Source: Rhina ancylostomus (lineage: Eukaryota). Taken from it: a stretch of DNA of 64,000 nt. The stretch spans positions 14,896,197 to 14,960,196 of the forward strand of contig JARFYF010000061.1 in the NCBI GenBank assembly GCA_030265395.1, written 5' to 3'. Within the stretch, counting starts at the first letter, position 1; every line of letters starts with the position of its first letter. Of the stretch, positions 27,501-30,500 are shown in pieces. Below the pieces are notes generated by a model. That model did no database searches and was not told the DNA's origin. It worked only from the letters and a program-made list of their open reading frames with translations. The position numbers were made by a program, and so were the translations under genes.

Positions 27501-30500
27501 AGATCGAAATCACAGGGTAACTTACGTGAAAGCAAATTTGTCATCATTGGGTTTAATGCAGCGCACATAGTGAGGCGTTGTAGCATTGAGGGTCTCCATC
27601 AGGAGATGAAGGGAGTTGCGGAACTGCAAGAGATGAATGAAAAATGAATTGTAATTCATTGAATTGGTGGAAAAACTTTAATTTTTTCCTCTTTCCTCCA
27701 TTGCGTCAGAATTTTCTTTCCCTTATTGTGCACTTGTGTAGTACAGAGGTTGATTGTTTGTTGGCATATCCTCCACTAGCTTCCCAAATGACTTCAGAAG
27801 AAAACATCTGGAGTCAAGAACAGAGGAAAGGGTTTCAAAATTAGTTTTGTGCAAATGGGCAAGGTCAGGACTGCTGGGCATGGCCCAGATCGTGAGAAGG
27901 GTCAGGCCGTGTCTTCTGTTTTAATACACTTGGTGACTTCGCCAGGTCACTAATGATGGTAGTTAAGAGTCGGTCATGGATAATGATCGAGTAACTGTTG
28001 CGTTACTGAACTAGCAACCAGCGACCTAATCTCTTCATCTGGTATCACAGTTCCGAGTCCCACCATGCCAGCTAGAGAACTTAAATACACACAAATACAC
28101 ATGATCCTGTTCCCTCAGGGTTGGGGAATCAAGAATTAGAGGGCATAGGTTCAAGGTGAGAGGAGATAAATAGAAACCAGAGGGACAATTCTTCACCCAG
28201 AGCATGGTCAGTACATGGAATATCACAGAGGAAGTGGATGAGGCAGGTAAATTAACAGCATTTAAAAGGTACTTGGACAGATACAGGGATAGGAGAAGTT
28301 TAGACAGATAGGGGCCAACTGTGGGCAAATAGGACTAGCTTAGATGGGAATCTTGGTCAGCATGGAGCACAGTTGGGCCAAACCCGTTTCCATGCTGTAT
28401 GACTCTATAATTAAAAAGAACCTTGAAACTAAAATATGACTAATGGTGTCTCAGAAATTACTGGACTGTTATAAAAATCCAGCTGTTTACTAATGTCCCA
28501 AGGACTATTGCCTTCACTTGGTCTCCCCACGGCAATGTGGCCATAACCACCCTCTGAAATGACCCAGCAACCACAGTTCAGCAGCCACAAGTGAGCTACA
28601 TGCTCAGAATTTGTCAGCTGAGGGAAACTGACCCAACCACTAAAGGACACCTGGTCCCTCTTTATGAGGAGAGATGCCTCATTTGCACTTTTGCAACAAA
28701 TCAGTGACTTTACGGTCACATTTTCTGGAGAGCACTTTGGTGTTTTTTTTTCCTGAACTCAAATACTCAGTCTGGGAATCCATTATTCTGGGAATAATGC
28801 ATTCCCTGCATTATTACGGGAGGCCTTTGGATTTCTACACTGCACTTGAGCAGTGTAACGTTCACAGAAAACAGTGACAACAGAATGCTGCCCTTAGGTC
28901 GTTTATCTCTGAAGCTGTGCAAACTGGGCTCTGGACTCACCTGATGCCCCACTGATTTCTTGTGCTCTTTGCTCGGCTGCAGGGCTCTCGGCTTGGCGGA
29001 TTTCACAGTTGCCCTGGCAACTGGGGGCCGTCCCTCAGTTGGGCTGCTGACCTGCTTCTCCTCTTGGAATAGCTCAGCAAGCAGACTTAACTGGTTTTGG
29101 TTAAATTACAATGACAACAACATTAATAATAGAAATAGTTTCAGCTCACCATCCATATCTCAGTGCTAGGGGGTCTCATGGAAATCCACTCAGATATTCG
29201 TGAACGCCACTGACTCTAACACTATGGTGTACAAGCCAAGGCCCCTGGGCTGGTATGGTCCTCTCCAGCCCACCTGAGCGGCTAGCTAACTGCCCACCCT
29301 TGCCACTCCTACACTGTTTGCCTGCAGTGTCCTCTGCGTGGGCCATGTTCCAGCACGATTGCTATCGGTTCACAGTGGCCTTTGTGACATAGAACACTCC
29401 AACATACCAGCCCAGTTCCCAAAGCAGGCTCCTAATCAGCAAGGTCCTCCAATAGAAAGTTAAACCATGCTCCCAGGCTGAACCATCTGCCACATCTCCC
29501 AAGCGCGATCTGTGCCTCTGAACATGACTGACGCTCTCAAACATCCAAAAATAATCTATTAAAATTAATGTTTTTGAATTAAATTTCAAAAACAAAACAC
29601 AAATTCATTTAAACATTTAAGAACATAGCTAGTGCTTTGTGGACCTGCTCTGAAATCTGCAACGAGTACTTTTTCTGAGTACCAGTACCATTCACTTTTT
29701 CTACATTTGCATACATCACTAATTTTTGACAAGTGGGCTTGACTGATGATCTGATGAGGTTGGCTCATTTTCTCTTGAAACTTTCACAGATAGCACATTA
29801 CAAAGGGAAAACCATTCCCCTAGCTACAGGCTTCCAATGTTACTTTTTGCCAGTGAACAAACACAGGGACTAACGTTTAATCCTGAAGCTGTGGAACTGT
29901 ACCATCCACTCACACTGCTTCAGAGGTGAAACAGGTTCCTTACCACAGTCGCATCATCCTGTAATCCACCTGGGGCTGGACTGATGGAAAATTAATGCCT
30001 TATACAAGAACATTTTCAAACCTGATGGCAACCCATTAAAATACACAGAACATTGCAAAGACATCATGTAGGGTAAAATTCCAGGGTGCACTAAATGCTT
30101 GTTAGTCAACAAAATAAATGTTGTATTTATAAGAATGTAAGACACCGGAGCAGGTGTAAGCCAATCACAGCATGAACCTGCTTTGCCATTGATATCTAAG
30201 GTGGACTGAGTTAAATGCTCCTCTGTGCAGCAGATAGCATGCCATTGCTGTTGGATCTGGGAATATTGCATACTAGGGAATACTTTAAAGGCTTTTACCT
30301 TCTGAAGAATAAACATCCGTGTGCATCAAACAGAATAAAAAGGAAAAAAAAATCAGTACATTTAACAACATAAAGGCACCCATTATCCAACTATCCACTT
30401 TTTCTTTCTGCTCTCCCTTCTCGTTGAAATAAGAAACATCCATTCCCCCCAAGACACTAATTTGAAGTCGAGGCTGTCCCCAGTAATAAATGGTTTCTGT

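Follow-up and report, generated by a model that had tools for sequence, protein, structure and literature searches.

A candidate three-nucleotide lysine microexon in the motor domain of myosin Va of the ray Rhina ancylostomus

Background

The splicing described for myosin Va concerns its tail, and includes a 9-nucleotide exon, called exon B, with a role connected to the dynein light chain. The supplement tables of PMC7935315, PMC12626424 and PMC8797185 are consistent with splicing in the tail. Exon B (DreEX0048705 / HsaEX0041193 / MmuEX0030525) is listed as neural and, in mouse and human, as eMIC-responsive. It is a microexon, as are the exons controlled by SRRM3 and SRRM4 (eMIC) in neural tissue, which, in the available parts of the sources (bioRxiv 10.1101/2024.09.17.613571; PMC12626424; PMC8797185), are described as 3 to 27 nt long, frame-preserving, preceded by a distal branch point and polypyrimidine tract and a UGC, and conserved from shark to tetrapods. 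According to the accessible portion of the first of these, the branch points and tracts of SRRM3/4 targets are strong but distal, and a UGC lies in the gap in 74 to 79% of cases, being helpful and not strictly required. A conserved alternative exon of a single codon is also known outside vertebrates: the 3-bp micro-exon of Drosophila homothorax (PMC7392893), which belongs to an unrelated gene and lineage, has, as far as the part of that paper available to us goes, an isoform-specific function and, by the title, alternates with another exon in splicing.

We describe here a 3-nt exon-like site, CAG/AAG/GTAAAA, recognized by sequence inspection at positions 30301-30299 on the minus strand of a 64,000-nt stretch of the R. 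ancylostomus genome (the window), inside an intron of the myosin Va gene. It shares with the SRRM3/SRRM4 class the properties listed above, and differs from it in three respects: it stands at the lower limit of 3 nt, its donor has no G at +5, and its apparent loss in therians contrasts with the high conservation ascribed to the class. It lies in the same gene as exon B, but in the motor rather than in the tail, and exon B is kept in therians. Its closest known counterparts are lysine 585 of chicken myosin Va and RefSeq isoforms with one or two lysines (XP_032906320.1, Amblyraja X4; PDB 1OE9, 2DFS, 7PLT), in which an identical lysine occupies the corresponding exon junction. These have so far gone unremarked, and no paper came to light that presents the lysine as a microexon, connects it with a paralogue or points out that therians lack it.

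More generally, full-text searches, covering result listings and the opening of abstracts, gave no description of the AAG exon; the VastDB chicken tables, subscription papers or the supplement of a chick preprint may list it. Among supplements, the only Myo5a microexon is the 9-nt exon, given for zebrafish myo5aa (PMC12626424) and for mouse Myo5a (PMC8797185), and a human supplement (PMC7935315, 12 of its 19 files) holds only longer Myo5a exons. There was no match in the accessible parts of PMC7821500, which may index by coordinates, of PMC9303857 (12 of 18 files) or of PMC8187152 (its small files). The available parts of PMC12121360 and PMC11607634 deal with other Myo5a exons or leave the exon unspecified, and the main text of the chick microexon preprint PMC12871342, in the portion available, does not name myosin.

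Results

Identity of the gene

The window covers the central part of a minus-strand myosin V gene. The exon that follows the AAG site is 100% identical to that of myosin Va in Pristis, Hypanus and Hemitrygon. Immediately downstream, the contig of the window (C61) carries a second myosin V gene, which stands apart from Myo5a and groups as 5c in a quick tree; directly downstream of myo5a is where the accessible part of PMC6372264 places myo5c. A third gene, on contig C52, has human myosin Vb as its best match (155.8 versus 131 bits). Given the exon identity with batoid Myo5a, the 5c-like neighbour and the presence of myo5b elsewhere, we assign the gene as myo5a. Five myosin V motor exons at about 15.023-15.027 Mb of contig C12 match the part that is missing, at a 6-kb gap, from myo5c on C61, and are probably a misplaced assembly piece of that gene.

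The site and its elements

The host intron (32741-29091; 3651 nt, of which 110 are N) is in phase 0 between ...LKASK and LSLLAELF.... The candidate exon, 3 nt long in a class of 3 to 27 nt, lies between AG and GT, preserves the frame and is in phase 0 on both sides. Its donor, AAG/GTAAAA, follows the consensus on the exon side and from +1 to +4, and has no G at +5. Upstream, the layout is that of an SRRM3/4 target: a distal branch-point motif, a strong tract, a TGC between tract and AG, and 80 nt free of any other AG (Table 1). Two loci with an SRRM_C domain (PF15230) score over the cut-off in this genome. The site is the only YAG-AAR-GTR of its intron, and the 301 nt around it are single-copy in the genome, which rules out a repeat origin. 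A shifted flanking splice site (NAGNAG or an alternative donor) was likewise ruled out as the source of the lysine, as in this ray's intron neither AAG/GTGAGT nor AAAACCAG/TTA yields a lysine by a 3-nt shift. The first-pass annotation had pointed out TACTGA, the U-rich tract, the TGC, AAG/GTAAAAG and the phase-0 intron, and had placed the site in non-repeat sequence; all these motifs were found again on the minus strand, and the single-copy count agrees with the last point.

Table 1. Features of the candidate microexon, its host intron and related sites (positions in the window unless stated)
Feature	Position	Strand	Remarks
Upstream coding exon (VEYQCEG...LKASK)	32742..32825	minus	myosin Va; phase 0 end; donor GTGAGT
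Branch-point-like TACTGAT	30352..30358	minus	CTGAT at -55; predicted branch A 30353 = -52; motif match, putative branch use
Distal U-rich polypyrimidine tract, 25 nt	30328..30352 (-51 to -27)	minus	best window 19/20 pyrimidines
TGC, candidate SRRM3/4-associated enhancer	30323..30325 (-24)	minus	putative role, after the available part of bioRxiv 10.1101/2024.09.17.613571
3' splice site TTCTTCAG	30302..30309 (acceptor AG 30303-30302)	minus	sole AG across 80 nt upstream
Candidate 3-nt microexon AAG = Lys	30299..30301	minus	equivalent of chicken K585; from sequence and comparison; predicted in this species
5' splice site AAG/GTAAAA (GTAAAAG 30298-30292)	30293..30298	minus	consensus on exon side and +1 to +4; without G at +5
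GCATG	30238..30242	minus	not conserved, probably incidental
Downstream coding exon (LSLLAELF...VGHQ)	28941..29090	minus	loop 2 included; acceptor AAAACCAG
Predicted inclusion junction GCCAGCAAG-AAG-TTAAG			upstream exon + AAG + downstream exon
Exon B counterpart GAGAGCAAG (ESK), 9 nt	L029 ~9576-9584 (G000:C61), downstream of window	minus	no TGC in the 40 nt upstream
AAG microexon layout in paralogue	L008:1033-1035 (G000:C57)	plus	intron between ...ILKASK and SELIAALF..., homologous to the myosin Va intron

Predicted RNA folding of 30260-30380 is nothing special (z 0.37). A 6-bp hairpin is predicted at 30289-30302 of the minus strand, with AAG and the donor paired to a downstream GCCUUU. A repeat of very high copy number occupies 30470-31140, starting about 170 nt upstream of the AAG site; about 400 nt of it are absent from some related contigs, which hints at a lineage-specific insertion. 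Further along, at 18870-21440, the minus strand holds an intronic, decayed element with endonuclease- and reverse-transcriptase-like fragments, which we take, from recall of its motifs, to be LINE-like.

Intron positions 29400-31400 were compared with contigs from four related DNA datasets, in a comparison dominated by the repeat. Contigs that span the AAG site diverge by 3.6 to 6.5%, as against 4.7 to 7.3% in the neighbouring intron, which is not clearly lower. Among the differences listed for the four datasets (40 of 173), no gap falls within 30292-30340. The GCATG downstream of the donor, which had been proposed as an Rbfox-type element, is present in the window, but reads ACATG in all four datasets (two of them at low depth), and with 60 copies on the minus strand of the window GCATG occurs at chance level. 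We therefore reject an Rbfox role through this G-to-A variable motif; the paralogue described below has a TGCATG at +20.

Expectation by chance

When the intron was shuffled 2000 times with its dinucleotides preserved, a bare YAG-AAR-GTR motif turned up in 304 of the shuffled sequences. With at least 17 pyrimidines in 20 nt, a TGC and no other AG, the count fell to 1 in 2000, which is optimistic, as the thresholds were set once the site was known and shuffling breaks up U-runs. Real sequence provides a better test. Over 860,120 bases (both strands of four myosin V regions of this genome), 770 YAG-NNN-GTR sites occur, and just two pass the microexon filter. Each is an AAG, and they lie in homologous introns, one being the myosin Va site and the other belonging to a paralogue on contig C57. 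This filter is not a general microexon detector, since it would reject the 9-nt tail exon of myosin Va, which lacks a TGC. Genome-wide, a loose pattern gave 309 overlapping matches (216 + 93), with a strand asymmetry, and serves as a rough rate only. The AAG site is not due to chance.

The paralogous site

The site on C57 comprises a branch-like CTAAA, a tract of 11 U, two TGC (-17 and -5), CAG/AAG/GTAATT and, 20 nt downstream, TGCATG; it was found with the features already fixed on the Myo5a site. The layout is thus common to both introns. The upstream exon of the C57 gene has a GC donor (AAG/GCAAGT). The tail of this gene is about equally distant from the Va and Vb tails, and in a quick tree the gene falls in a separate clade (SH-aLRT 95). 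Both observations fit the account of myo5bb in the available part of PMC6372264, where it is traced to the early vertebrate genome duplications and found in sharks, birds, turtles and fish, not in mammals; the C57 gene is therefore probably myo5bb, a name given by inference. Within its clade one protein, P0381, reads RASKKSALLAELF, while P0402 reads KASKSELVAELF and the other members have one lysine, so that P0381 is the single case of inclusion in the clade.

The simplest reading of a site shared by two paralogues would be homology, with convergence as the alternative. On that comparison, it is quite likely that the exon predates the myo5a/myo5bb duplication, and because the paralogue carries the same site the exon is probably older than jawed vertebrates. 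For Myo5b (C52), no candidate was present in the gap-free part of the corresponding intron, in which 7317 of 12,817 bases are N. The Myo5c intron is broken by the assembly gap and the displaced piece.

Lysine isoforms across vertebrates

We tabulated the junction in 373 proteins obtained from sequence searches and cluster look-ups, a sample made of top hits and of at most 15 members per cluster rather than a full census. In 25 sets of gene models from nine species, chimaera to platypus, the models are identical apart from the lysine or lysines. An extra lysine is present, with totals that include unmatched rows, in 9/18 models of skates, 12/45 of sharks, 2/12 of chimaera and 0/28 of non-skate batoids among cartilaginous fishes, and in 4/8 of monotremes, 5/26 of turtles, 1/5 of crocodilians, 5/59 of squamates and 4/71 of birds among tetrapods. 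Frogs have it in 10 of 20 models. Lysine forms even make up the majority of models in Amblyraja (9/15) and S. canicula (7/10). Three Xenopus tropicalis models, P0207, P0215 and P0213, have between them zero, one and two additional lysines at the junction, which suggests either two exons of 3 nt or one of 6 nt with tandem acceptors. These isoforms are mostly predicted models, and their read support is not visible. For teleosts, there was one named Myo5a model, malformed at the junction, and two fish-like proteins without KK.

Since paired isoforms with K and KK occur in one genome, they point to alternative splicing and not to a species difference. The chicken protein, whose cDNA reportedly came from brain, has the lysine. 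Its PDB chains read KSSK584-K585-FKLL, and the remaining myosin Va chains, labelled as mouse in UniRef, read KSSK584-F585-KML. Taken together, the comparison supports a real 3-nt lysine cassette exon across jawed vertebrates. The first-pass annotation had given a one-lysine difference between chicken and human; the chicken chains do have the extra lysine, and the mouse chains and one human model have a single one. Its suggestion of conservation since early jawed vertebrates agrees with K/KK models from chimaera to platypus. Its view that such an exon would be invisible to gene predictors does not hold, as the lysine already appears in RefSeq for thorny skate, two sharks, chimaera, Xenopus, reptiles, birds and monotremes, although many annotation sets miss it.

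Absence from rays and from therians

Two groups call for an explanation. Of 21 cartilaginous fish species, 15 have neither the lysine nor tail exon B in any model, four have both, two (with one model each) have exon B only, and none has the lysine only. Because the same models miss exon B, the lysine is probably missing from ray models through an annotation that overlooks microexons: the 28 models of non-skate batoids have neither, and exon B is present in the genome studied here.

The therian case is different in that exon B is found. The extra lysine occurs in none of the therian models seen (0/62 placental and 0/13 marsupial, 0/75 in all), though 31 of them include exon B; the KK query ranks KK forms first, and from the mammal cluster 15 of 1572 members were seen. 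Among models with exon B, the lysine is present in 24/56 non-therian and 0/31 therian ones (Fisher p 3e-6, an overstated value as models are not independent, and one obtained with a scoring pattern for exon B that left out frogs, chimaera and most birds). Loss of the exon in therians, marsupials and placentals alike, is thus likely on this comparison, and the difference between chicken and mammals looks like a result of this loss, not only a difference of tissue. Within models the lysine is not tied to exon B: in Amblyraja, 5/9 models with exon B and 4/6 without it have the lysine. This gives no sign of co-regulation, in a test weakened by the fact that short-read models combine distant exons freely.

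Place in the motor

In a model of the mouse motor, the insertion point lies in an ordered turn of five residues (582-586) between helices 574-581 and 587-591, with a pLDDT of about 92 (mean 83.9). An earlier structure prediction of the motor, made with 20 close sequences, was discarded for its pLDDT of 34.5. The accessible part of PMC8735999 places loop 2 of chicken myosin V at 594-635 and lists six actin-binding elements, none of which contains residue 585; a direct contact of the lysine with actin is therefore unsupported. The lysine had first been described as next to the actin-binding loop: it does precede loop 2, but sits in an ordered turn nine residues away. An effect on loop 2 anchoring or on local charge, and hence on weak actin binding, is a tentative and rather doubtful suggestion.

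Discussion

The AAG exon is real and very probably spliced; it would belong to a known class of microexons, and its isoform is already among RefSeq models. On sequence and comparison, it is highly likely that the ray itself splices it. The question is then how its inclusion is controlled. We propose that AAG is a frame-preserving cassette exon in myosin Va whose default is skipping and which would be included where SRRM3/4 are abundant, that is in nerve cells, with the help of the distal branch point and the U-tract with a TGC in the gap. Inclusion would place one more lysine in the motor head, in the short turn that precedes loop 2 by nine residues, and the added charge and turn length might alter loop 2 anchoring and thereby weak actin binding. 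We regard a 3-nt cassette exon of this type, skipped by default and included in neurons with SRRM3/4 assistance, as reasonably likely, and hold the same degree of confidence in a neural, SRRM3/4-driven inclusion through these elements. The TGC is a weak marker, since exon B of this genome has none in the 40 nt upstream. Further points against this reading are the donor without G at +5, the variable GCATG, the position of residue 585 outside the listed actin-binding elements and the lack of the lysine in every non-skate batoid model.

Several other explanations were considered. The exon may be a genuine cassette whose inclusion is neither neural nor SRRM3/4-dependent, owing to another factor or being broad and partial. 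The zebrafish neural-exon table (PMC12626424) and the mouse eMIC-dependent table (PMC8797185), where the AAG exon does not figure and the 9-nt exon is the only Myo5a entry, speak for this and count against our preferred explanation, as does the lack of coupling between lysine and exon B in the models. However, the mouse apparently has no such exon, which makes its list uninformative, teleost Myo5a is barely sampled, and the distal branch point, U-tract and TGC are kept in two paralogues, so that we consider non-neural control unlikely, though the most credible of the alternatives. Less probable by a good margin is a recursive, zero-length splice point, where CAG-AAG-GT would hold tandem acceptors, the distal AG/GT serving a two-step removal of the intron and the lysine being a by-product of the proximal AG. 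AAG does end in AG directly before GT, the zero, one or two lysines of X. tropicalis fit tandem acceptors, and both paralogues keep a lysine codon with AG at its end; but the intron measures just 3.65 kb, lysine forms predominate in Amblyraja and S. canicula, and AAG is in any case the most favourable exon end ahead of a donor.

That the exon is used in other vertebrates and survives in this ray lineage as a silent relic would agree with the absence of the lysine from all models of the non-skate batoids, the closest relatives, and with a divergence over the site that is not clearly reduced. All its elements are intact, however, the lysine is included in a skate, and the batoid models in question also miss an exon B that is present in this genome, which leaves a relic very improbable. 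A chance motif, with KK models as annotation artefacts, has in its favour only that the bare motif is common, in shuffles as in the loose genome-wide search. It is largely refuted, and barely credible, in view of a full layout shared by the corresponding introns of two paralogues and absent from the rest of the 860 kb, of experimental chicken constructs with K585 and of isoform pairs in nine species. We thus retain the SRRM3/4-assisted cassette exon as the preferred reading.

The interest of the locus is modest, because such microexons form an established class and RefSeq already contains the isoform. What is new is the site in the paralogue, the exon's apparent disappearance from therians and the disagreement of chicken with mouse constructs. 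The therian loss would account for the lack of the AAG exon in mammal-centred catalogues. The site nevertheless puts an alternative exon into the motor domain of a molecular motor that is among the best studied, and offers a compact case of microexon evolution, being kept in two ancient paralogues, lengthened in frog and apparently lost in therians. Chicken constructs, with K585, and mouse constructs, without it, would correspond to different splice forms.

A wider proposal, which we put forward as speculative and unlikely to hold in full, is that a neural exon of a single codon, already present before the genome duplications of vertebrates, adjusts the myosin V motor itself; it would persist in myo5a and myo5bb, have grown to two lysines in Xenopus tropicalis and have disappeared from therians. 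If this were true, the chicken myosin Va used in much of the biophysical and structural work would be a neural, lysine-included isoform that mouse and human are unable to make, and part of any difference between chicken and mouse in actin affinity or processivity would come down to one residue, K585.
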